DNA from: an uncultured Kaistella sp.
GTDB lineage: Bacteria > Bacteroidota > Bacteroidia > Flavobacteriales > Weeksellaceae
DNA: 64,000 nt
Assembly (NCBI GenBank): GCA_964532055.1
Contig: CAZHFE010000001.1
Span: 3,576-67,575 of the forward strand
Direction of reading: 5' to 3'
In this document: piece after piece, positions 40,025 to 52,898 of the stretch
Layout of the letters: every line of letters starts with the position of its first letter
How positions within the stretch are numbered: the first letter of the stretch is position 1
Notes under the pieces: generated by a model
Told to the model about the DNA's origin: nothing
What the model saw: only the letters and a program-made list of their open reading frames with translations
The model's database searches: none
Program-made: the position numbers and the translations under genes

Positions 40025-40106
40025 GCGGATGTGGTGTAATTGGTAGCCACGCCAGACTTAGGATCTGGTGCCGTGAGGCGTGGGGGTTCGAGTCCCTTCA
40101 TCCGCA
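40025..40106 (+). tRNA. tRNA-Leu (TAG)
   Basis: GCGGATG/CATCCGC acceptor stem, CTTAGGA anticodon loop, long variable arm, GGTTCGAGTCCC T-arm. Confidence 0.96.
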
Positions 40107-40115
40107 CATTTTTTT

Positions 40116-40188
40116 GCGAAAATAGCTCAGCTGGTAGAGCGCAACCTTGCCAAGGTTGAGGTCGCGGGTTCGAACCCCGTTTTTCGCT
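40116..40188 (+). tRNA. tRNA-Gly (GCC)
   Basis: GCGAAAA/TTTTCGC acceptor stem, TTGCCAA loop, GGGTTCGAACCC. Confidence 0.96.
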
Positions 40189-41831
40189 CATATTTCTACC
40201 TGCCTTGGTGGTGGAACTGGTAGACACGCAGGACTTAAAATCCTGTGTCCGCAAGGACGTACGGGTTCAAGTCCCGTCCGAGGTACATAGCGGGAGTTGG
40301 TTGAAAAATCATCTCCCGTTTCTTTTTTCAACCTCTGGAAATCTCGATTATACCTGCAAAGTAATGAGATTGCTTCATTAAAAGGAAGGGTTCGGAATTT
40401 ATTTTTTTCAAAAATTAATTTTTCTGTGAAGTACGAACCCAATAAAAGTACTTTCGTTTCTACAGTAGCATTTTTGTAAAAATCATCGAGATTTGAGATA
40501 ACCGTAAGTCCGAAAGATAGAAGTTTATTTAAATCATCATTGTAGTTACTATATTCGTTTTTTCTTAACTTCAAATCGACCAGCTCTGACTTTTTTATTT
40601 CCGACATTTTTAAATAGAGGCTGTCATCAATAATCCCATTTATATTTTTATTTACAAGTGCTATTTGCTCTTTTTCTAACTGGCATATTTTTTCCTCTAT
40701 ACTTTTTGATAGTCTAATGCTTTCTTGAAGAGTTTCTTGGTATTCATCAATTAGAATTTCTTCAAATAACTTTAGAATGCCTTTAGAGGGTTTTGCTTTA
40801 GAAAGAACTCTATATAATTCTTTGTGAATTATTTCAGGGGAATACTTCTCTCCACAGTTGTTTGAACATCTATATGAAGAATGAAATACCTTTTTCTGTT
40901 TTCCATTATTACTCTTACTTCCGTAGAGTGGGCTACCACAGCAAGCACATACCAAAAACCCACTTAAAGGAAAGTCAGGGTTTTTAGGTCGTTTCTTTTT
41001 AATCATCCTGTTTCTGCCTTTTTTGATGTCCTGCACCGTGTTAAATAATTTTTCCGGGATGATTGCTTCGTGCAGCCCTTTTTGCAAATTGTAAGGAGGT
41101 ATTTTATGCTTTTTAAGGTCAATATAACCTGCGTACAAAATATTACTCAGGATTATGCTTAATGACGATTCAGAAATATTTAGTCCTTCTGCCTTATATT
41201 TTTTTACCAACTCTGCCTGTGTATATAAACCAGTCGAGTAATCTTCAAATAACTGTCTTATTAGAGGTGCTTTTTCATTTGGTACTATGCCTTTTTTTAA
41301 AGAACCATCTTCATTAATTCTTCCCCACTTATAACCATTCGGGGGAGTTTTAATATATCTTCCCTTCTTCATTGCTCTTCTTTCCCCAAGCCTTGTCCGT
41401 TCGTTAATGATCGCCCTCTCATATTCAGCAAAAGTAAACTTCAAATGCATTATCATTCTACCTTGTGCAGAATCAATATCATTAATCCATTCATCAACGA
41501 AATTAACTTCAATACCTAATTTATTGATGTCTTCATAAGCCTCAACACCTGTCTTAACCCCTCTTGTAAATCTATCGGCTTTTTTAGTTAAAAAGAGGTT
41601 AATTTCACCTTTATTTTCTTTCAAAAATTTATGCGCTTTTTCAAATTGAGGTCTTTTAAAGTCCTTTCCTGAATAAACATCTACATAAGTATCTAAAAGA
41701 ATAATGTTATTGTTTATACAAAAATTTTTAATGCTTTCTTTTTGGCTTTCAAGTGAAGTACCATCTTCTTGGCTAACAGAACTAACACGTAAATATCCTA
41801 CCGCTGTTTTATATGTTTTTTTCTTCTCCAT
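40188..41831 (-). CDS. Large serine recombinase (integrase); C-terminus reads through attL antisense to tRNA-Leu
   Basis: GYLRVSS catalytic motif, SGKDFKRP, KADRFTR, AEYERAIINERT, recombinase domain, zinc ribbon CACC...YRCSNNC, coiled coil. Confidence 0.95.
   Translation of the reverse strand: MEKKKTYKTAVGYLRVSSVSQEDGTSLESQKESIKNFCINNNIILLDTYVDVYSGKDFKRPQFEKAHKFLKENKGEINLFLTKKADRFTRGVKTGVEAYEDINKLGIEVNFVDEWINDIDSAQGRMIMHLKFTFAEYERAIINERTRLGERRAMKKGRYIKTPPNGYKWGRINEDGSLKKGIVPNEKAPLIRQLFEDYSTGLYTQAELVKKYKAEGLNISESSLSIILSNILYAGYIDLKKHKIPPYNLQKGLHEAIIPEKLFNTVQDIKKGRNRMIKKKRPKNPDFPLSGFLVCACCGSPLYGSKSNNGKQKKVFHSSYRCSNNCGEKYSPEIIHKELYRVLSKAKPSKGILKLFEEILIDEYQETLQESIRLSKSIEEKICQLEKEQIALVNKNINGIIDDSLYLKMSEIKKSELVDLKLRKNEYSNYNDDLNKLLSFGLTVISNLDDFYKNATVETKVLLLGSYFTEKLIFEKNKFRTLPFNEAISLLCRYNRDFQRLKKETGDDFSTNSRYVPRTGLEPVRPCGHRILSPACLPVPPPRQVEI
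40202..40285 (+). tRNA. tRNA-Leu (TAA); integration target
   Basis: GCCTTGG/CCGAGGT acceptor stem, CTTAAAA loop, variable arm, GGGTTCAAGTCCC. Confidence 0.96.
40271..40300. other. attL site
   Basis: tRNA 3' end gtcccgtccgag-GT-acatagcgggag. Confidence 0.75.
40291..40328 (+). terminator. Element-supplied terminator after the tRNA cluster
   Basis: cgggag-t-tggtt-gaaa-aatca-t-ctcccg followed by tttctttttt. Confidence 0.65.
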
Positions 41832-42948: not shown

Positions 42949-43680
42949 TTATTTCAAACAACTAATTAATCTTAAGAAGTTAGATGAAATAATATTTTCT
43001 ACGTTGTAACTCGAGGCATTCCATTCTTGAGCCAAATAATCGATTACTGGGGATGTTTCTCCCGGATTTAAAGGTAAACCTTTCTCAACTATAAATGGAC
43101 CATCTGTTTCTGTTAAAATAAACTCTTTAGGTATTTTTGATATGATTTTCCTTCCAGAGACAGATTTTATCATTGCCGGATTAACAGAGAAAAAATAACC
43201 TGCTTCTCTAATGGCTTCAATTAAATCTAATCTTCCTGAATACCAATGAAAAATTGCATATTTTATATTATATTCTAACAATAGATCTAAAACTTCTTTC
43301 TCCGCTTTTCTGGAATGAATGCTCAATATTTTTTTCTGCCCTGAAATAATCTTAAGTATTTTAGAAAAAGTATCTAATTGAATATCTTTTGTAGAAATCC
43401 CTTCTTTAGAAAAGTCTAAACCAATTTCTCCTATATACGATGTTTTACCAACGTTCTTAATGAATAAATCAAACTCCTTTTTATGCGAATCGGCCATCAA
43501 AGGGTGCATTCCTAAAGCTAATCTTATTCTTTTTAATGATTGAAAATGAGCGTATCCCATTTCAAAATGGCTTGGCAAATTGGTCATTGCTAATACTGAT
43601 ATATTAGCTTTTATGCAATCCTGCAAAACTTTTCTTGGATTCTGATATAAATCTATATGGCAGTGTGTATCAATAATCAT
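42949..43680 (-). CDS. qatD: TatD-family nuclease, Qat defence subunit D
   Basis: DTHCH, LGMHP, IGEIGLD, SIHSR, FHWYSG, LTETDGP; ATGA overlap with qatC. Confidence 0.9.
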   Translation of the reverse strand: MIIDTHCHIDLYQNPRKVLQDCIKANISVLAMTNLPSHFEMGYAHFQSLKRIRLALGMHPLMADSHKKEFDLFIKNVGKTSYIGEIGLDFSKEGISTKDIQLDTFSKILKIISGQKKILSIHSRKAEKEVLDLLLEYNIKYAIFHWYSGRLDLIEAIREAGYFFSVNPAMIKSVSGRKIISKIPKEFILTETDGPFIVEKGLPLNPGETSPVIDYLAQEWNASSYNVENIISSNFLRLISCLK

Positions 43681-45044
43681 CTTATCCCTAACTCAGACTT
43701 TACAAATCTATTTCCTTTATCTCTAAATAATTGTAAAACCTCTTCTTTAGACCTTAATACCATATCCGCATACTCTTCAAGATCAGCAATCTCAATATTT
43801 CCATTCACTAATAAATCTCTTTTCATATTTTCCAAAGAAATATTTCTTTTTAAATAGCTGGTTAATGCAGGCAGATCTTTACTGTAATTTCGTGAAGTGG
43901 CATTAGTAATAAAATTGCCATAGTGGTCTTCATTATCTAATGTTGCTTTATTTAGAGCAGCCCTTCTATAAATGCAAGGCATACATATTCCACATTCTTG
44001 TACTCCAGTTCTTACTTCCCAATTTTGTTTCCTTCCTCTTTTACCACAAGAAACCGAATCTTGAAAAATACTTTGTATAAATGTTTGGTTTGTACATTCA
44101 ACAAACATTTCCCCCTTAGTTTTAAATGTATAAGGGTTATGTATTCTTGTAGATACTCCTAAATCGGCAAGTAATTCTTGAGTGTTTTTCAATACATAAG
44201 GATGCGTTGTTCTAGTACTTAAAGAACTCACTCTTGATGGAGTTAGTGGATAATTGATTGAGATTGTGCCGTTCTCAGGAATTATCAAATCATCAGTAGG
44301 GGACAAATAACAACCCAAACCAATGAAAAAGAAAGAACGACTACGGTAATTATTTTCGACATTTATTTTATTGCCATCACTATCTTTTCTTAACAATGCC
44401 AATTTTGATTGCACCCAATATATTTTGTCTTGATATTGGGCCATCAAATGCCTTAATAGCTTTCTTTGGTCTCCATTTGGACCTGGGGATTTTGAATCAA
44501 AATGAGATACCAAAAGTATTCTTTCATTATTTCCTAGCTTCTCCAATTCATCGATAACTCCAATTAAAGAATCCAAACCACCCGAAAATAAACTTACAGA
44601 TTTGATGGAGTCTCTGTCGTAAGTTGGAATTTTTCTTCTGTTTGTACGTGGTTGAAACAAATTAACTTCTTCTATTTCTCGGAAATAAATCTGCCAATTA
44701 TCACCTGTTAAGAAGTCTAAAACTTGTTTCAATTTTTCTTCTTTCCCACTCCAAACAGCTAAGTTATTCACTGGAAATTCCACTTCTATATCTCTTGCCC
44801 AACCATCATTTGAATAAATAGCCCGACTAAGCAGGTTATCTACACCATAAACTATTGCAGACACAAGAAAAAAATCAAATTTTACAGAAGTAAAATCAGT
44901 CGTAAAATCAAAAACCCTTTCATAACCTAAGAATGATAATGGAACTTTTCTATTCACTCCATTATCCATATAACAAAGTTGCAAATCTGAGAACTTGCCA
45001 TAATCTGCATCCTCAATAACTACGTTTACTCTCATATTATTCAA
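43677..45044 (-). CDS. qatC: QueC-like protein, Qat defence subunit C
   Basis: SLFSGGLDS PP-loop, RSRSFFF, IPENG, TRTTHP, SCGK...CGICMPCIYRR. Confidence 0.9.
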   Translation of the reverse strand: MNNMRVNVVIEDADYGKFSDLQLCYMDNGVNRKVPLSFLGYERVFDFTTDFTSVKFDFFLVSAIVYGVDNLLSRAIYSNDGWARDIEVEFPVNNLAVWSGKEEKLKQVLDFLTGDNWQIYFREIEEVNLFQPRTNRRKIPTYDRDSIKSVSLFSGGLDSLIGVIDELEKLGNNERILLVSHFDSKSPGPNGDQRKLLRHLMAQYQDKIYWVQSKLALLRKDSDGNKINVENNYRSRSFFFIGLGCYLSPTDDLIIPENGTISINYPLTPSRVSSLSTRTTHPYVLKNTQELLADLGVSTRIHNPYTFKTKGEMFVECTNQTFIQSIFQDSVSCGKRGRKQNWEVRTGVQECGICMPCIYRRAALNKATLDNEDHYGNFITNATSRNYSKDLPALTSYLKRNISLENMKRDLLVNGNIEIADLEEYADMVLRSKEEVLQLFRDKGNRFVKSELGIR

Positions 45045-45777
45045 ATACGGTTAATATATCTTGCTGAATATTTTTAACAACCCTATCGGCTTCGTCAGAA
45101 CTCCAATCAATGTTTTGTAGTGGATTTCTTTTGTGCATATCTCCAACTCTTTCAACTATAAAATTTTTTATTTGGTTGAAAAGGTTGTTACAATCACTTT
45201 CACTCTTATTTTTTATTAAATTTTCATAGAACCACTTTGATAAAAGCTCATTAATGTAATATCCAAAATATTTTACTATTACATCTTCCAATGTATTTGT
45301 GGTAAAAGTCTCCTGTAATAAAGTTTGTACTTCATCAATGGATTCAGCTTGCCCCATTAGTTCTTCTAATAATAATCTTGTGGCTTCTTTTGCCGCATTA
45401 TCATCAATTGAAGTTGCATTACCGGAACAATACTCAATCAAATGATTAATTACATCGCCAACCGTTTTATTATCAATATCGGTTAAACCAGTAGATTCAA
45501 GAGTTTCTCTAATATTATTACCCGAACTGATAAACTTTGAAAAGACTCCTCCGATTTTCTTTGCAGTTCTGATACTGCTTCTTCCTCCTGCTTTTGAACC
45601 GCCACGCCCTCCTGTTGATGCTCCGCCCAATGCTGAAACAAAATGCCCCATAATGTTCTGTAGCTTCTGAGCTGGAAGAACAGAAGAATCACAATTTGAG
45701 GTAAGCGAAGAACTAAGCGTACCCCAATTCGGAACCATTGAGTGTTTTACATCAGAAAATGATTTAGATGTTCCCAT
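45037..45777 (-). CDS. qatB: Qat defence subunit B
   Basis: MGTS N-terminus, Gly-rich GGASTGGRGGS segment, position between qatA and qatC. Confidence 0.8.
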   Translation of the reverse strand: MGTSKSFSDVKHSMVPNWGTLSSSLTSNCDSSVLPAQKLQNIMGHFVSALGGASTGGRGGSKAGGRSSIRTAKKIGGVFSKFISSGNNIRETLESTGLTDIDNKTVGDVINHLIEYCSGNATSIDDNAAKEATRLLLEELMGQAESIDEVQTLLQETFTTNTLEDVIVKYFGYYINELLSKWFYENLIKNKSESDCNNLFNQIKNFIVERVGDMHKRNPLQNIDWSSDEADRVVKNIQQDILTVFE

Positions 45778-45779
45778 TT

Positions 45780-47678
45780 CTATTTTTTTAGATTAAACGC
45801 TTTACTTGCTCTTGATTTTCCATCTTTGAAATAATCATTCAAAAACGTTCCAATTTCAGGTTCTGATTTAAAGTCTGCCAATCTCGTAGCAACCGCAGGT
45901 TCAATATCTGATACGCTGATTATTTTAAGAGTTTCCATATAGTGATAAACTGCATTTTCTATTTTATCTTCTGTCATTACATTGAAAATGTCATACAACC
46001 GCTTTTGCTGAGGATTCCTTTTTAAATTTGAAGATAAAAGATTGAAAAAAGCATCTTTTTCAATATCGCTAAAAGGTTGAAATTTTTCATATAGTAGAGA
46101 TTTTGTAACTGTTGCCGTCATATTATCGGGTAATAACTCATTAAACAATGCCCTTACTACTGGTGGAATCATACTCGTTGCAGTGATAGAATTTTCTAAT
46201 TTATCACGGGCAATCCAATAATAATCCCGTAAATCAACTCCTGATAACAATGGTTCTATTTGAAACCATTTTATTATTTTGGGTTTACTCCATTCTTTGA
46301 AATCAGTATCTTTTATTTCCAAAAGAACATCCTCAATGCCTTTATCCTTACATATAGATTCTATTTCTGTTATTTCTTTTGGCATTCCGTCTTGGGAAAT
46401 TTGCCACTCAAATAATTTTTTGAACAGCTTGGGTTCTGAATATTCAAGTATCATCATTTTTGCAAGAACAGCATCATTAAAACTTTGTAACGATGCAACT
46501 TCGGCAAGTCTTTTTCTAATTGTATAAGTATTTAGAAACCGTTTAATCTGTCGGGGATTTCCATACAAACTATTTGTAATCAATGGTACTAATGCCGGAA
46601 TCGTAATTACATTATCTTTAACTTTTCCAAATTCCTCTGCTTCTAAAATCTTTTCAAAATTTGATAATCCAAATGCAGAATATTTATTCGTTAACCTATA
46701 CTTCTGAAATTCAGCAAGTACGTTTTCAAATTTGGTATTATCAATCTCTTTTTTACAGATAAGCATTGATATATAAGTTTCGACTTCTGATTCCGACAAT
46801 CTCGGTAACGAATATGGAAGCTGAATTAATTTTTCTAAATAATCAATAACAATTCGGTTGTTATCTTCTTCGATTTCTTTATTATTTTTGTATTTATTTT
46901 CAATGGCATATTTCACTATTCGAGGGTCTGCTCCAATAATGAATGCTGTTTTGGGTACGTTTAGGAAAAGTTTAATTGCTTCAAGGTTCTCAATAATTCT
47001 TTCGGGGCTACATCTGTCTAAATCATCAATAATTACAACCAATCTTTTAAAGTTTGTGGCTTCTAAGAGTTCAGCAAAATCTTTTCTAAATTCTGCCACC
47101 GCATTAGTGGAATTTTTATCTTCCTCTTTACTTTCTTTTATAAAGGCTTTAAATGTTTCCTGACCTTCTTTGGAGTTAAGTTTTTCTATTATTTTTTCAG
47201 GATTATCTCCCCATTCGGTTAGCTTTTGAACGGCAAAAGGAAGTAAACTAATGCCTCCTGTAAAGTATGCAGAAACAGCGGGTAAGGCAACATTCTTCAT
47301 AACCATACCTGCTCCACGTATCCAATCAATAGATTTCCAAAGTTTCTTTGCTTTTTCTTTTATCGTATCCTTTATTTCGGCTGAAATCTTTTTATTGTCT
47401 TCCAATTCCTTAAGAATTGAATTTAGCAATGCGGCTTTAGCATCATCATATCCTTCAAAAGTCCATCCATTAAAGTATATGCAGAGAGAATCCTTATCAT
47501 CCTCCTTATCAAATTCTTCTTTTACTATTTGTAAGATACTGGATTTCCCACTTCCCCAATCGCCAAAAACGCCTATTGTAATCGGCAAAACAGACTCGTC
47601 ATTGATTATATTGATTAACAAATCTGCGTGTACTTTAAAACCTAAAAGGTCTTCGGAGGTTTCGTTATCTGCCCACAT
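45780..47678 (-). CDS. qatA: KAP-family P-loop NTPase, Qat defence subunit A
   Basis: MWADNET, IGVFGDWGSGKSS, FNGWTFEGYDDAK, IIDDLDRC, YLEKLIQ, GNPRQIKRFLN. Confidence 0.92.
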   Translation of the reverse strand: MWADNETSEDLLGFKVHADLLINIINDESVLPITIGVFGDWGSGKSSILQIVKEEFDKEDDKDSLCIYFNGWTFEGYDDAKAALLNSILKELEDNKKISAEIKDTIKEKAKKLWKSIDWIRGAGMVMKNVALPAVSAYFTGGISLLPFAVQKLTEWGDNPEKIIEKLNSKEGQETFKAFIKESKEEDKNSTNAVAEFRKDFAELLEATNFKRLVVIIDDLDRCSPERIIENLEAIKLFLNVPKTAFIIGADPRIVKYAIENKYKNNKEIEEDNNRIVIDYLEKLIQLPYSLPRLSESEVETYISMLICKKEIDNTKFENVLAEFQKYRLTNKYSAFGLSNFEKILEAEEFGKVKDNVITIPALVPLITNSLYGNPRQIKRFLNTYTIRKRLAEVASLQSFNDAVLAKMMILEYSEPKLFKKLFEWQISQDGMPKEITEIESICKDKGIEDVLLEIKDTDFKEWSKPKIIKWFQIEPLLSGVDLRDYYWIARDKLENSITATSMIPPVVRALFNELLPDNMTATVTKSLLYEKFQPFSDIEKDAFFNLLSSNLKRNPQQKRLYDIFNVMTEDKIENAVYHYMETLKIISVSDIEPAVATRLADFKSEPEIGTFLNDYFKDGKSRASKAFNLKK

Positions 47679-47759
47679 AAATTGTAATTGTTAATGTGTG
47701 AAAATTATTCAAAGTATTCTATGTTGTCAGCAAAAATATTTCATTACGATTAATAAATA

Positions 47760-47775
47760 TTACGGAAAACCGTAA
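47760..47775. repeat. TTACGG-N4-CCGTAA palindrome, copy 1
   Basis: ttacggaaaaccgtaa between the Sir2 remnant and qatA. Confidence 0.75.
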
Positions 47776-47800
47776 AAATGAATTTAGTATTAAAAAATAA

Positions 47801-48012
47801 TTTTTCATATTTATAGTTCTTATAAAATTCGGCAGAATTTATATTTTAGACAGATAAATATCTTTTTTCCTCTTCCAAATACAGTCATAAGCAGATTGAA
47901 TACCAGAACTAATAGACGCTCCAGCACCCAATAAAAAAGAATGCGGAACATCCAAATTCCATTTAAAAGACCTTAAAAATGCATCGTATTCAAGTAGTAT
48001 GTTTTCTGTCAT
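47801..48012 (-). pseudogene. Truncated, frameshifted Sir2-domain gene (resembles SPARSA Sir2-APAZ N-termini)
   Basis: MTENILLEYDAFLRSFKWNLDVPHSFLLGAGASISSGIQSAYDCIWKRKKDIYLSKI* (47839-48012); one extra A would continue it as SKNINSAEFYKNYK. Confidence 0.75.
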
Positions 48013-48043
48013 ATTAATTTACCTTTATATACAGACGGGTTAT

Positions 48044-48748
48044 TTATAAATATTTTAATAATTCTTCTGCCAACCTAAATACTGTAGTCGATGATTCTTC
48101 TTTCGCTGGATTTTTGTGGTCAAATTGTTCAAAGTTTCTTGTAGCTCTTGTAATAGCTAAATCAACTCTTTTCTTTTTTGTTTTCGTATCAATTCCGTCT
48201 AATAACTCAAAAAAATCCTCACTCACTTTTTTAGTCCCGTTTCCGTCATATGTTACGCCGAACGGTTTAAGTAATTCATTTATTTTGTCGTTGTAATCAC
48301 TCCTGTGCATTCCTCCTCCTTGATGGTCGTCAAAATGAAGAATTAACCAATACTCAAAAGATTGATTAGAATAAGCTACATTAAAATTTTGAGCTTCTGC
48401 TATTTGGATTGCACGATTAAAATCATTTTCAGTAAAGTCGTCTTTGTCAAATACACACCAAACTTGGTCATATTGCTTTTCGCCCGCTAATTGTTCTGCT
48501 CTATTGACCAACGATATTGTGTTATACCCTTCGCCAACTGATTTTACCGTTGCAGAAGAAAGTCTAAACTGATTGAAATAGGAAGGCTCTGTATTTTCAC
48601 CTTCACAAACAATCAATATCGAAGGTTTTTCAATCAATTCAGCATCTGGTCTTTCCAAATTTGGTTCAATCCGCCTTTTAGCTTTAAGTTGTTCCTTATG
48701 TTTTTGTTTAGCCGCTATTTGCTCAGCTCTTTTGTTCTTCATTTTCAT
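48044..48748 (-). CDS. RloB-family (AbiLii-like, TOPRIM-like) protein
   Basis: LIVCEGENTEPSYF, VWCVFDKD, AYSNQSFEYWLILHF, STTVFRL. Confidence 0.9.
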   Translation of the reverse strand: MKMKNKRAEQIAAKQKHKEQLKAKRRIEPNLERPDAELIEKPSILIVCEGENTEPSYFNQFRLSSATVKSVGEGYNTISLVNRAEQLAGEKQYDQVWCVFDKDDFTENDFNRAIQIAEAQNFNVAYSNQSFEYWLILHFDDHQGGGMHRSDYNDKINELLKPFGVTYDGNGTKKVSEDFFELLDGIDTKTKKKRVDLAITRATRNFEQFDHKNPAKEESSTTVFRLAEELLKYL

Positions 48749-50057
48749 ATTGCGGCATATTAAAATTTAGGTTATCAAAAAAGCCTAAATATGGAATAGC
48801 ACCATATTTACCTCTAATGTAATTATCTTCAAAAGGTTCATTTTTCTTAACTTCATCAGACTTAAAGTTTGCTAAAGAATATAGTTTAGCCTCACCGTAT
48901 TTATCTTTATTCGTAAACCAAATTTGGTCTCTTCTAAATAAGCCTGAACTTAATAAGTTAGTATCGTGAGTGTTGAAAATTAATTGAGCGTTTTTTGTAT
49001 TGAATTCTTTTGAGTTAAACAAAGAAACAATTTTACACACTAAATTGGGATGTAACTTTGAATCAAGTTCGTCAACAACTAAAGTGTCGCCGTTTTCAAT
49101 GACATCTAAAATAGGACCCGTTAAAGCAAAAAACTTTCTTGTCCCCGAAGATTCATCTTCATCAAGAGAAAAATTCACATTGCCCAATAATTGCTTATTT
49201 AAGTCATACTTTTTATGGGTTGTCAATATATCAGCAAAAAACTGAGTGTTTTCTTCTTTCATTTTCCTAATAATTTCATCCTTCATCTCTTTAGGCATTC
49301 CTGTAGGCAATTTATCAATATCCAATTTTTGAATCTTAATATCCTGAATCCCTAAGTCAGCAGCTTTTAATAATTCAAGAATTTTTGCTTTATGTGTTGG
49401 AATTTCGGTTTTGCCAACAGTAAAACCTTGATATCCGATTTCATCTAAACCTGAAAGGAATTTCAGTTTTTTAAACCAATCAACGACTGCAATAGCTATT
49501 TTTTCATTGAATTGTGCTGCAACTGAAATGAAAAGAGCATTATCTCTTACAAGCCCTCCTTTTATTACTGCTGAACCTCTTGTGAATTTTCTGCTATGAG
49601 TTTCAAATTGATTTCCATCTCTGTAAAACAATTCAATCTCCTTTGTTTTAGGTTTATGATATAGCCATTCTGAAACAATATTTTCTTTAGTCGCTTCAAA
49701 ACCATAACGAAATAATTCTCCATTAAAAAGAAAAATAATTTCAAATTCAGATGGCTCATTTTCGGTTTCTTTACTTAAACGAAATGGTTCAACTTCAATG
49801 CTTTCTCCTTTTTGAGTTTCTTTTGAACTATTAATCACAAAATATCTCATAAAAGCAATAGCATCTAAAAATTTACTTTTTCCACTTGCGTTTGCTCCAT
49901 AGATTACTGCACTTTTGAGTAATCTGTAATTAAATGTTTGGTCTTCAAAAACATTCTCTACTTCTCGTGTTTCTTTATCATAATTAGAAGCAATTAAACT
50001 CAAAGTTGCTTTATCCTTAAAGATTCTGAAATTTTTAACTGAAAATTGTAGAAGCAT
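48723..50057 (-). CDS. RloA/AbiLi-like ABC-type ATPase
   Basis: IYGANASGKS, ESSGTRKFF, LVVDELDSKLHP, QLIFNTHD, RRDQIWF, YIRGKYGAIP. Confidence 0.92.
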   Translation of the reverse strand: MLLQFSVKNFRIFKDKATLSLIASNYDKETREVENVFEDQTFNYRLLKSAVIYGANASGKSKFLDAIAFMRYFVINSSKETQKGESIEVEPFRLSKETENEPSEFEIIFLFNGELFRYGFEATKENIVSEWLYHKPKTKEIELFYRDGNQFETHSRKFTRGSAVIKGGLVRDNALFISVAAQFNEKIAIAVVDWFKKLKFLSGLDEIGYQGFTVGKTEIPTHKAKILELLKAADLGIQDIKIQKLDIDKLPTGMPKEMKDEIIRKMKEENTQFFADILTTHKKYDLNKQLLGNVNFSLDEDESSGTRKFFALTGPILDVIENGDTLVVDELDSKLHPNLVCKIVSLFNSKEFNTKNAQLIFNTHDTNLLSSGLFRRDQIWFTNKDKYGEAKLYSLANFKSDEVKKNEPFEDNYIRGKYGAIPYLGFFDNLNFNMPQYENEEQKS

Positions 50058-50361
50058 AATAATTTCGCTTTTGTTAAATTTTATTACAAAGATAATACTT
50101 ATTTATTTCGCATATACAAAATAAATGTAATTTTTAACAAATTTACGATTTAAAACGCTTTTATTTTACGAGTATTAACAAAATAATAATTTCCATAGAG
50201 GTGTTTTTATTATAAGATATTTTTAATACTTTATGATGGTTGATGTTTAATTTTGCAAAAATTCAGGTGTTTTTCAAGTGGAAACTCAAAGCCAAATTTA
50301 AAATCTCAACTTAACAAATATATCTCTTTAAAAGTTTTGCTACCTTTCTAATCATTCATAA

Positions 50362-50395
50362 AAAATGCTACTTATGTCTAAATAAGTAGCATTTT
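50362..50395 (-). terminator. Terminator after the OB-fold membrane gene
   Basis: aaaatgctactta-N8-taagtagcatttt. Confidence 0.75.
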
Positions 50396-50415
50396 ACTAT
50401 TATCAACTCAATTCA

Positions 50416-51672
50416 TCACTCCCACAACTCGCAATTTTTAACAACCACATCCGTCAGAGAACGTCCTGAGCAAGTTCCGATAATCTGAACCTTCTGACCT
50501 TTATTAAGTTGGGAAAGAACTTTATTATTTTTATCCGAGAAATAGCAGTTCACACTTTGCAGGTAGTCGATTTTCAGAGAAACATAAGGGTCATCCAATA
50601 CATCCTTTCCAATTGTTCCTACAACTCCTTTAATCAGTAGTCTTTTTCCTTTATATTGTCCATCTGCTGAAACTTCATTAGCTTCATAGGCATTGTAAAG
50701 TTCCGATGCTGATACTTCCATATCAACCTTTGGAAACAGCTTGCTGTTAGGGTCAACTTCTTTCAGCTTGGTTAAAAATCCGTCTTTGGTGGCAAGATAA
50801 GGATAGATATAACTTCCTTTGTCATTCCAAGAAGAAAGACCTTTATTTTTAGCCTCGTAAAGTGCTTCTAAATTTTGCTTATCCGGGTTCATTAAAGCAA
50901 AGAAAGGGGTTAAATCATAGTCGTATTTGATTTGCTGTGAGTTCATATTCGCATCATACGTCATTCCTTTTACTCCAGATGCATTGAATTTGTTTTTATA
51001 ACGGACAAAGACATCAATAATCTCTTCCGGCAATCCGCCATTTACAGTTGGCATAGCCAAAGCACCACACTTAACCACAAAATCCATTTTGTTTTCTCCG
51101 TCTTCGGAGGATGTTACCTGTTTTTCCAAATCTGCATTAATAGCATAATTCTTAGACGAAATATTAGTAATTCCATTGGTTATAGCGTTGAGAACCGGCA
51201 GATATTCCGAACTCACAACTTTTTCAGTCACCAGCTTAGTATAAACCGGATTTTCTTTTAATGCGGAAAGCAGTTTCTCTCTGTTGGCTTTCAACTCCGG
51301 AGAAAGAGAAGCAATATTTTTAGCCGATTCGTCAAGATAGCTTTGATAAGGGTTTTGATTGACAACCTCTTCGGTTTTTTCTTTTGTAATCGAAGTGGAA
51401 GCAGGAAATTTTGTTTTGTTGGCTGTTATTCCAATCAAAGCCAACAGCACAGCATAAGAAACATACCGGACAGCCCGACTGTTCCATTGCTTTAATTTTT
51501 GTTTTAAATTTTCCGAGACCGGAGGAAGGATAACCACTCCTAAAATTGCAGAAATTAATCCTGCGAGCACTTCTTTCTGTGCAATCATTCCGAGTGCGGC
51601 AATGATGAACAATGCACCGATAATAAACTTTACGATTCTCATAAGACTGATATTTTTAAAATTAAACTTCAA
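50416..51672 (-). CDS. Membrane-anchored protein with C-terminal tRNA_anti-like OB fold
   Basis: Three N-terminal TM helices; C-terminal VSASELYNAYEANEVSADGQYKGKRLLIKGVV...LNKGQKVQIIGTC. Confidence 0.8.
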   Translation of the reverse strand: MKFNFKNISLMRIVKFIIGALFIIAALGMIAQKEVLAGLISAILGVVILPPVSENLKQKLKQWNSRAVRYVSYAVLLALIGITANKTKFPASTSITKEKTEEVVNQNPYQSYLDESAKNIASLSPELKANREKLLSALKENPVYTKLVTEKVVSSEYLPVLNAITNGITNISSKNYAINADLEKQVTSSEDGENKMDFVVKCGALAMPTVNGGLPEEIIDVFVRYKNKFNASGVKGMTYDANMNSQQIKYDYDLTPFFALMNPDKQNLEALYEAKNKGLSSWNDKGSYIYPYLATKDGFLTKLKEVDPNSKLFPKVDMEVSASELYNAYEANEVSADGQYKGKRLLIKGVVGTIGKDVLDDPYVSLKIDYLQSVNCYFSDKNNKVLSQLNKGQKVQIIGTCSGRSLTDVVVKNCELWE

Positions 51673-51768
51673 TTTTATTCTCTTTCAGCCCCAGAAAGAT
51701 TCATAAAACCGGAAACCGACCTTTAATAAAATGAGTTTCCAATTTTAAAGATTGTTTATTGGTTTTCC

Positions 51769-51784
51769 TTACGGAAATCCGTAA
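51769..51784. repeat. TTACGG-N4-CCGTAA palindrome, copy 2
   Basis: ttacggaaatccgtaa, extended by flanking tattggtt/aaccaata. Confidence 0.75.
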
Positions 51785-51819
51785 AACCAATAAAAAAAGG
51801 CGTGAGGACTTAACCAAAC

Positions 51820-51931
51820 GCTTCAAAGGCATCGCCAAACGCCCTATAACAATATGGAAAGCCCCACACCAAGTGTGGTAGCGGTTTTCCATATTCTCTG
51901 TTATAATTTGAAATTGGCGATTTCTTGAAGC
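51820..51931 (-). ncRNA. Structured RNA candidate: five nested stems
   Basis: gcttcaa/ttgaagc, atcgccaa/ttggcgat, tataac/gttata, aatatggaaa/tttccatatt, ccacac/gtgtgg. Strand inferred from the flanking genes. Confidence 0.6.
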
Positions 51932-52220: not shown

Positions 52221-52898
52221 TTAAACCTCTATTTGCGCTTGAAAAAATCTATCATATAATATCAACACTTGAGATGAGGTAAATTCACAGCCTCTGCTGG
52301 TCTTGAAACCGCTTTTATTCAGCTCATCAGCAATCTTTCCGTAACTGTTTCCGGCATTTCGTAATGAAACAATGAGGGCAGTTGCCTTACGGTTGTTCTC
52401 ATTTTGAAGAGCCTTTAACCTCATCGCCTCGCTTCCCATTTGTCTGGCTTTGGCAGTTAGGTTATTTGGAGTTCCAAGTTTTACGCCTTTCGCTTTGAGT
52501 TCCTGAAGTGCAGCAATGGTTCTTTTGCTGATGAGTTCCCGCTCTTCTTGTGCAAGAACTGCCATTATTCCGATTGTAATCGAATTGGCTTCCGGCATAT
52601 CACAGCATTTGAAATCTATATTGCTATCCTTCAATAAAAAGATAAACCCAGCATTTCTGCTGAGTCTATCAAGTTTAGCGATGAGCAAGGTTGCACCTTC
52701 ATTCTTACTTTTCTCTATGGCTTTCAGGAGCTGAGATCTGTTATCATTCTTGCCACTCTCAATTTCCTCGAATTCGTCTATCAGAATATCATCATCTTTG
52801 AGATAATTTCTTACCATTGATTTCTGGGCTTCCAATCCTAAGCCGGAATTTCCTTGTCTCTGAGTTGACACTCTGTAATAGGCTATGTATTTTTTCAT
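52221..52898 (-). CDS. Small serine recombinase (resolvase/invertase family)
   Basis: YIAYYRVSTQRQ, ESGKNDNR, AKLDRLSRN, AQEERELISKRT, GVKLG, C-terminal HTH. Confidence 0.93.
   Translation of the reverse strand: MKKYIAYYRVSTQRQGNSGLGLEAQKSMVRNYLKDDDILIDEFEEIESGKNDNRSQLLKAIEKSKNEGATLLIAKLDRLSRNAGFIFLLKDSNIDFKCCDMPEANSITIGIMAVLAQEERELISKRTIAALQELKAKGVKLGTPNNLTAKARQMGSEAMRLKALQNENNRKATALIVSLRNAGNSYGKIADELNKSGFKTSRGCEFTSSQVLILYDRFFQAQIEV

Follow-up and report, generated by a model that had tools for sequence, protein, structure and literature searches.

The present study concerns two short palindromes, and the promoters in which they lie, on a genomic island of an uncultured Kaistella sp. (assembly GCA_964532055.1, contig CAZHFE010000001.1, positions 3,576 to 67,575 of the forward strand); this stretch of 64,000 nucleotides is referred to as the window, and all positions are counted within it unless another locus is named. 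The island, which is low in GC and 14.7 kb in length, has integrated at the tRNA Leu-Gly-Leu cluster (40025-40286), and its cargo genes, all of which lie on the minus strand, include a qatABCD defence operon, an AbiLi/AbiLii pair and a gene for a membrane protein with an OB fold (Table 1). Copy 1 of the palindrome, TTACGGAAAACCGTAA at 47760-47775, stands upstream of qatA, and copy 2, TTACGGAAATCCGTAA at 51769-51784, stands upstream of the OB-fold gene; both fit TTACGG-N4-CCGTAA. Herein, we propose that these palindromes are probably operators of a NarL/FixJ-type response regulator, embedded in sigma-A promoters and stranded in a strain that appears to have lost the regulator or never to have had it.

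Both 16-mers were observed at the places given in the initial annotation of the window, and matches to the motif were found in none of 100 dinucleotide-preserving shuffles. An exact scan of the whole assembly (2.33 Mb, 169 contigs, 94% complete) returned these two copies alone, against an expected count of approximately 0.09 estimated from base composition, and a search of the same genome for weaker sites with the promoter spacing described below revealed none above background. The remark in the initial annotation that the core sequence holds no copy is therefore true of this genome, both copies being on the island, and does not extend to relatives, in which many copies sit in conserved, non-mobile chromosomal loci adjoining yajC or lpd. 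A scan of relatives detected the palindrome in 21 of 61 genomes, with up to nine copies per genome and a single match overall for the reversed control, and the spacers of these copies were strongly biased towards AAAA, GAAA and AAAT. In the window, 82 nt separate copy 1 from the qatA start codon downstream of it (47678), and 127 nt separate copy 2 from the conserved ATG of the OB-fold gene (51642), likewise downstream; the distance of 80-100 bp proposed initially is accurate for qatA, and for the OB-fold gene it holds only from the TTG start chosen at that time (97 nt). Moreover, copy 1 is 28 nt from the point at which similarity of the Sir2 remnant to its intact homologue ends (47804), close to the first estimate of about 25 nt.

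The palindromes keep a fixed position relative to the promoter. On the gene strand, copy 1 is followed by 21 nt, the box TATTTTTG (47738-47731), 52 nt and the qatA ATG, and copy 2 is followed by 21 nt, the box TAAAATTG (51747-51740), 97 nt and the ATG at 51642. Both boxes were read as -7 elements of Bacteroidota sigma-A promoters, for which the consensus is TAnnTTTG (PMC10309648). In the flanks of approximately 45 copies of the genus, the spacing between palindrome and TAnnTTTG was exactly 21 nt in 22 of the 25 cases with an exact box and in about three quarters of the copies when one mismatch was allowed, and some single palindromes have two divergent boxes, one 21 nt away on each side. In a logo of 164 distinct sites, only A or T occurred at spacer positions 2 and 3, T was favoured just 5' of the palindrome, and the second position after the palindrome (+2) was G in 63% of the sites. 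Given a 19-nt spacer, which is the modal length in the window's genome, this G coincides with the G of the -33 TTG, so that the promoter-proximal half-site abuts or overlaps the -33 element; the centre of the site is approximately 29 nt upstream of the -7 box. Variants such as TTATGG, ATACGG, CCGTAT and CCATAA were observed in either half, as expected of a site that is bound by a protein. Thus, the palindrome is supported as a putative dimer-binding site embedded in a promoter.

The composite of palindrome, 21 nt and TAnnTTTG is widespread. With up to two mismatches, it gave 131 matches in 31 of 51 Kaistella genomes, compared with 17 for the reversed control, and species-representative genomes across Flavobacteriia and Sphingobacteriia contributed at least 120 contigs with the exact composite, in genera that include Flavobacterium, Pedobacter, Chryseobacterium, Sphingobacterium, Mucilaginibacter, Polaribacter and Tenacibaculum. 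Among the matches listed, all contigs were labelled Bacteroidota but two, both of which came from one metagenome-assembled genome labelled Bifidobacterium breve that is probably mis-binned.

A candidate for the binding protein was revealed by a conserved locus in which two sites flank the gene of a 220-aa response regulator, which itself follows the gene of a TPR histidine kinase. By protein search alone, 21 homologues of the regulator were detected in 19 of the 51 Kaistella genomes, and for 18 of the 21 genes a site with at most one mismatch was located just past the stop codon on the same strand. Among the matches listed for the phylum, a homologue (36-56% identity) was encoded on 49 of the 120 motif-only contigs, with the site 4-147 nt past the stop codon in 36 of the 45 full-length homologues measured, and the regulator gene usually adjoins that of a TPR-containing histidine kinase. 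The association is also observed for whole genomes. In Kaistella, sites of the composite with up to two mismatches were present in all 19 regulator-positive genomes (mean 5.9) and in 12 of the 32 regulator-negative genomes (mean 0.59, mostly two-mismatch noise; Fisher 3e-6). Among 301 Weeksellaceae genomes, 132 contained both regulator and site, 27 the regulator only, 5 the site only and 137 neither, which corresponds to an odds ratio of 134 (Fisher 2e-50, a statistic that treats genomes without regard to their relatedness), and regulator and site were found in the same 14 of 49 genera.

Profile comparison and structure prediction place the regulator among the response regulators of NarL/FixJ type, as a divergent member with a receiver domain and a four-helix, LuxR-type helix-turn-helix. 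Pfam detected the receiver domain only, below threshold, and missed the helix-turn-helix. A profile of the family compared with the PDB retrieved RcsB (6e-13), followed by VraR, DesR and NarL, and an AlphaFold2 model with a predicted local distance difference test score of 88 matched full-length RcsB with template modelling (TM) scores of 0.70/0.76 and could also be superposed on LiaR, EvgA, DesR and FixJ. The phospho-acceptor aspartate D59 is invariant in the family, and the catalytic part of the kinase is similar to those of UhpB, NarX and LiaS.

The kind of element is known, namely an operator of a NarL-family regulator, and three systems are instructive. The site of ComA, a member of the NarL/FixJ superfamily, lies upstream of the RNA polymerase site and is an inverted repeat in which 4 nt separate two TTGCGG hexamers (PMC4797271). 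The ComA box of the ComP-ComA quorum response in Bacillus subtilis (TTGCGG-N4-CCGCAA) shares five of six bases per half-site with TTACGG-N4-CCGTAA, and in both cases a response-regulator dimer stands upstream of the RNA polymerase site as an activator, as reported for ComA (PMC4797271) and as predicted here. However, ComA belongs to another phylum and works with -35/-10 promoters rather than TAnnTTTG, the two regulators are only distantly related, the additional direct repeats of ComA promoters (RE3/RE4) have no sign of a counterpart here, and the ComA regulon concerns competence and surfactin whereas the genes found here are mainly defence genes and small uncharacterised ones. Among solved structures, that of RcsB, which acts at the rprA and flhDC promoters of Enterobacteria, comes nearest to the predicted regulator. 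The small RNA gene rprA is activated by a dimer of RcsB that binds to a pseudo-palindrome immediately 5' of the -35 element. The sequence identity is approximately 21%, and RcsB differs in its box sequence and in being served by the RcsC/RcsD phosphorelay instead of a TPR kinase. Class II activators such as LuxR and TraR also have a four-helix helix-turn-helix and use a palindrome whose distance is fixed and which overlaps the upstream element of the promoter, the lux box being centred near -42.5, but these proteins carry an N-terminal ligand domain for acyl-homoserine lactone where the present regulator has a receiver domain with D59. A literature survey that covered the motif, promoter motifs of Flavobacterium and links between two-component systems and defence returned no description of the motif, the two-component family or a defence link in Bacteroidota.

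Several observations concern the surroundings of the regulator gene. A number of the promoters just past it (L011, 1320-1480, minus strand; L026; L038) have no open reading frame before a terminator approximately 130-170 nt further on, adjoining yajC, and these are candidate small RNAs that would be under control of the regulator, reminiscent of RcsB and rprA. A conserved protein of 260-340 aa without a Pfam family is encoded divergently from the kinase-regulator operon behind a palindrome promoter of its own (L184, 6724-7662; L185, 7087-8019; L186, 1248-2030; L076, L100 and L120), and the module may include this protein as an additional component. In addition, two genomes of different species (L215 in G021 and L216 in G034) encode a near-identical regulator paralogue of 240 aa that ends in a plain terminator with no palindrome, which may represent a branch of the family that is mobile and wired in another way.

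No member of the regulator family was detected in the window's own assembly. The best open reading frame scored 57 bits with the hidden Markov model of the family, compared with 270-335 bits for members, and was a generic NarL-type paralogue; the Weeksellaceae profile search likewise found no regulator in this genome (G000). The two chromosomal positions at which relatives carry the gene, one between yajC and a DUF2851 gene and the other between the bkd E1 gene and lpd, are empty here. This genome is thus one of the 5 among the 301 Weeksellaceae genomes with an exact site and no regulator, and its sites appear to be stranded. The genomes in which the closest relatives of the cargo occur do encode the regulator; they are G211 in the case of qat, and G627 and G581 in that of the OB-fold locus. 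Without the regulator, the qat and OB-fold genes would be expressed from the -7 box alone or by read-through; AbiLi, AbiLii and the Sir2 remnant run in the direction of qat, and the long hairpin leader in that of the OB-fold gene.

To describe these results, we propose the following mechanism. In a promoter class with the order TTACGG-NWWN-CCGTAA, 21 nt and TAnnTTTG, a dimer of the NarL/FixJ regulator would bind both hexamers, with its proximal half against or over a weak -33 element, and the phosphorylated regulator would most likely recruit RNA polymerase from there in the manner of a class II activator. The operator just past the stop codon of the regulator would drive a small neighbouring gene in Flavobacteriia and Sphingobacteriia, and further operators would serve many accessory genes, among which anti-phage systems are prominent. 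On this island, two such operators would precede qatABCD and the membrane OB-fold gene, which in a host without the regulator would then rely on basal activity of the -7 box or on read-through from co-directional upstream genes. The motif, its spacing and distribution, its association with the regulator and the fold of the latter are shown by the present data, whereas the binding itself, a role in activation instead of repression and what follows from the missing regulator are inferred; activation is favoured by the fixed position overlapping the -33 element. The suggestion in the initial annotation of a shared regulatory site for island cargo thus stands as regards the kind of element, a palindrome embedded in promoters, while its repressor probably gives way to an activator and its island-encoded binder to a chromosomal one. 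The island proteins tried as binders, namely the 'MerR-like' protein of 265 aa and two others of 247 and 183 aa, could be assigned to no family in Pfam or PADLOC, and neither the 'MerR-like' protein nor the resolvase nor any other island protein has a homologue beside another copy of the motif.

Several points weigh against this proposal. The co-occurrence statistics take no account of phylogeny, 27 Weeksellaceae genomes have the regulator and no exact site (zero mismatches permitted), and the usual G at +2 is absent from copy 1. The regulator gene of this strain could lie in an assembly gap, given 169 contigs and 94% completeness. Furthermore, 73 viral or proviral contigs (L219-L291, IMG/VR) carry the exact composite before small open reading frames, with no regulator gene in these stretches. 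The reading frames behind the viral copies form recurrent families of 66, 73, 65 and 85 aa, with some XRE-like repressors. The simplest reading of these copies is phage use of the host regulator, and they would equally fit another binder. That the motif is the operator of a different protein, either another host transcription factor or a repressor acting over the -33 element, with the regulator gene as a frequent target rather than the source of the binder, is therefore an alternative that must be considered, although we regard it as unlikely. A repressor would also act at the -33 region that the site overlaps, and XRE and XRE-S24 genes stand behind some copies. However, a repressor needs no spacing fixed to the single nucleotide, no other transcription-factor family recurs beside the sites, whereas the regulator does so in the 49 listed loci mentioned above, the genome-level co-occurrence is with this NarL/FixJ regulator, and the 6-N4-6 geometry is that of NarL-family ComA. 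An SOS/LexA box was rejected because the half-sites and spacers published for Bacteroidetes LexA, GGA-N5-TCC and CTAA-N5-TTAG, with TTAC-AAATT-GTAA for one paralogue (PMC8565304), differ from TTACGG-N4-CCGTAA. Those operators resemble the present one in being palindromic and in belonging to a phylum-specific regulator, and one XRE-S24 gene lies behind a copy here, but their spacer length and half-sites are different and they have no fixed promoter geometry.

The other explanations concern DNA exchange, RNA structure and chance. The initial annotation had offered the palindromes as crossover sites of a site-specific recombinase, such as the small serine recombinase of the island, through which defence cassettes would be exchanged in an integron-like manner. 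Both copies indeed lie in junction DNA, copy 1 within a 125-bp segment between two breakpoints and copy 2 within a 92-nt indel relative to homologous loci, and the small resolvase gene is approximately 440 bp from copy 2. In G211, a member of another genus, the qat cassette is 87.5% identical over 43020-47679 only, and homology stops at the qatA ATG with no palindrome at the junction; the 125-bp segment has no long homologue in 300 Weeksellaceae genomes and short matches centred on the palindrome only. For copy 2, the identity between the window and G627, from another genus, is 85% over 51627-51796, the box and 11 of 12 half-site bases are conserved, and G627 also encodes the regulator, whereas five homologous loci (L197, L199, L200, L201, L204) keep the long upstream hairpin and the TTTCTGGGACTGGAAG leader and lack the palindrome. 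When synteny breakpoints were compared with the motif, as had been suggested, those at 47679, 47804 and 51796 fell 82, 28 and 12 nt from the palindromes and never within them. No homologue of either serine recombinase of the island was found in 179 other motif-bearing loci (1.14 Mb), and the OB-fold gene and small recombinase are syntenic in G581 without a palindrome, so that this recombinase is unlinked to the motif. Many copies in relatives occupy the conserved chromosomal loci adjoining yajC or lpd, a fixed distance to a -7 box plays no part in recombination, and 16 bp is short for the crossover site of a serine recombinase. Exchange at the palindromes is consequently very improbable, and a tempting but unsupported idea of an integron-like site for defence cassettes can be removed; the palindromes are near the junctions because the regulator site is the outermost functional element of the promoter module. 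A promoter that travels with the qat cassette was likewise ruled out, since G211 shares 43020-47679 only and has qatA directly after another gene.

Alternatively, the palindromes might act as RNA hairpins, either weak intrinsic terminators or insulators against co-directional transcription from upstream. Copy 1 on the minus strand fits a loose terminator pattern, a 6-bp stem followed by TATTTATT, which also counts against the operator proposal, and copy 2 lies inside a longer hairpin of -15.2 kcal/mol (z -4.2). However, the folding energy of copy 1 is only -6.4 kcal/mol (z -1.65), and copy 2 lacks a U-tail on both strands and does not keep its extended arms in G627. Among the copies, spacers are found in either orientation, one palindrome can serve two divergent boxes, there is no Rfam match at the palindromes (scans of the window with Rfam at gathering thresholds and for tRNAs returned the tRNA Leu-Gly-Leu cluster only), and the 21-nt rule and the link to the regulator would be left unexplained; this role is highly unlikely. 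That a short palindrome recurred by chance in the AT-rich DNA of the island can practically be dismissed. By our own estimate, a freely chosen 6-N4-6 palindrome would recur in approximately 5-10% of 64-kb windows, which is not very rare, but the shuffles and the genome expectation given above speak against it, and copy 2 is kept across genera. The 21-nt rule was established outside the window and is obeyed by both copies, which is decisive against chance.

The genes behind these promoters give the regulator its wider interest. In Kaistella, they include Cas9 at five loci, SMODS/CD-NTase, HsdR, an OLD/GajA-like ATPase, a PLD-helicase, HSDR_N-domain proteins, DUF2971, DUF4065, a DnaQ-BRCT exonuclease, XRE and XRE-S24 regulators and small proteins without an assigned family. 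Among 77 first downstream open reading frames across the phylum, HSDR_N (5), mad2 (3), MmeI-type IIG (2), HamA (2), type I R (2), type I M (2), PbeA (2), DUF1508 (2) and Cas9, Dcm and PLD (1 each) were identified, together with recurrent families of cysteine-rich proteins of 55-75 aa. The composite often stands ahead of genes for Cas9, restriction-modification (RM), Hachiman, CBASS and Abi systems, and the share of defence genes appears to be far above that expected from a genome. At three of the Kaistella cas9 loci (L041, L045 and L047), one palindrome is common to cas9 and to a divergent -7 box without an open reading frame, and one regulator dimer may thus co-drive cas9 and a non-coding RNA, possibly the tracrRNA.

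Therefore, we hypothesize, tentatively and as a possibility that could well prove wrong, that the TPR kinase and the NarL-type regulator form the master switch of an 'immune regulon', in which one portable promoter module co-induces type II-C Cas9 (possibly with its tracrRNA), RM, Hachiman, CBASS, Qat, Abi and many small proteins, and in which mobile cassettes and prophages carry the operator to plug into host signalling. If so, hosts without the regulator, such as this Kaistella, hold stranded and possibly silent copies. The nearest lineage-wide 'defence regulon' described is that of DdaA, a WYL-family activator of Moraxellaceae that links DNA-damage and anti-phage networks and whose motif precedes RM and CRISPR-Cas genes among others (PMC12392091). 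Both cases combine one chromosomal activator with a conserved motif, but DdaA is a one-component WYL regulator that answers a DNA-damage signal in Moraxellaceae, whereas a two-component, NarL-type regulator of Bacteroidota is proposed here. The regulation of anti-phage arsenals is understood in a small number of instances, among them WYL regulators, quorum sensing and DdaA, and little beyond these. The 16-bp operator, the fixed promoter geometry and the candidate regulator and kinase provide a testable handle for the whole phylum, predict which defence systems are co-regulated, Cas9 included, and might yield an inducible promoter module for Bacteroidota genetics. Moreover, the window indicates that horizontally acquired defence genes can come wired to a regulator that is absent from the new host, which bears on the expression of such cargo.

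Table 1. Features of the island and of its two palindrome promoters (positions in the window).
Feature	Position	Strand	Evidence or remark
Large serine recombinase gene	40188-41831		island
qatA-qatB-qatC-qatD defence operon, behind promoter 1	42949..47678	-	Pfam; PADLOC QatA 1e-113, QatC 2e-92, QatD 2e-61
Promoter segment, 125 bp, between two synteny breakpoints (qat side and Sir2-remnant side)	47679..47803	-	G211 homology ends 47679; G471 homology ends 47804
-7 box of qat promoter, TATTTTTG (Bacteroidota sigma-A consensus TAnnTTTG)	47731..47738	-	21 nt past copy 1
Palindrome copy 1, putative response-regulator dimer site of qatABCD promoter	47760..47775	-	TTACGGTTTTCCGTAA on gene strand; 21-nt spacing to -7 box
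SIR2-APAZ-pAgo remnant, ~70 codons, truncated at start of promoter segment	47804..48012	-	84% nt identity to 5' part of G471 gene
AbiLi/AbiLii pair, between both palindromes, without a palindrome of its own	48044..50057	-	Pfam; PADLOC AbiLi 2e-102, AbiLii 2e-30
Membrane protein with C-terminal OB fold (tRNA_anti-like), behind promoter 2	50416..51642	-	Pfam; homologues
Promoter module, ~92 nt (palindrome, box, leader start)	51700..51791	-	in window and G627; absent at same position in 5 homologous loci (L197, L199, L200, L201, L204)
-7 box of OB-fold promoter, TAAAATTG (one mismatch to TAnnTTTG)	51740..51747	-	21 nt past copy 2
Palindrome copy 2	51769..51784	-	TTACGGATTTCCGTAA on gene strand; then GG, as in most copies
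Long conserved hairpin ending in T-run, directly upstream of promoter module 2	51820..51931	-	alignment with relatives
Small serine recombinase	52221..52898	-	Pfam; syntenic with OB-fold gene in G581

Some further observations concern the neighbouring elements. The source of the Sir2 remnant is represented in G471 by a SIR2-APAZ-pAgo fusion of the short-pAgo type with 1052 aa (L218, 4080-7238), which is matched by the pAgo and SIR2 models of PADLOC. In G211 (L193, 5900-6425), qatA starts approximately 25 nt past the stop codon of the upstream gene, and from this arrangement qat appears to be expressed there within a longer operon, the same cassette being wired differently from host to host. 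Outside the window, at the start of lpd in the same genome (C2:43640-43790), a run of N is followed by a duplicated stretch of 50 nt, which looks like a scaffolding or masking artefact. Finally, in relatives the long hairpin directly precedes the leader of the OB-fold homologue, and this hairpin, with its terminator-like closing stem and T-run, is kept together with the short TTTCTGGGACTGGAAG leader hairpin (51680-51699) before related membrane genes in several Weeksellaceae genera, represented by the five loci named in Table 1. Apparent compensatory changes were observed in these hairpins, e.g. CTCACGC/GCGTGGG versus CTCTACG/CGTAGAG, and, by their sequence, the hairpin and leader before the OB-fold gene look like a conserved cis-regulatory leader or attenuator.

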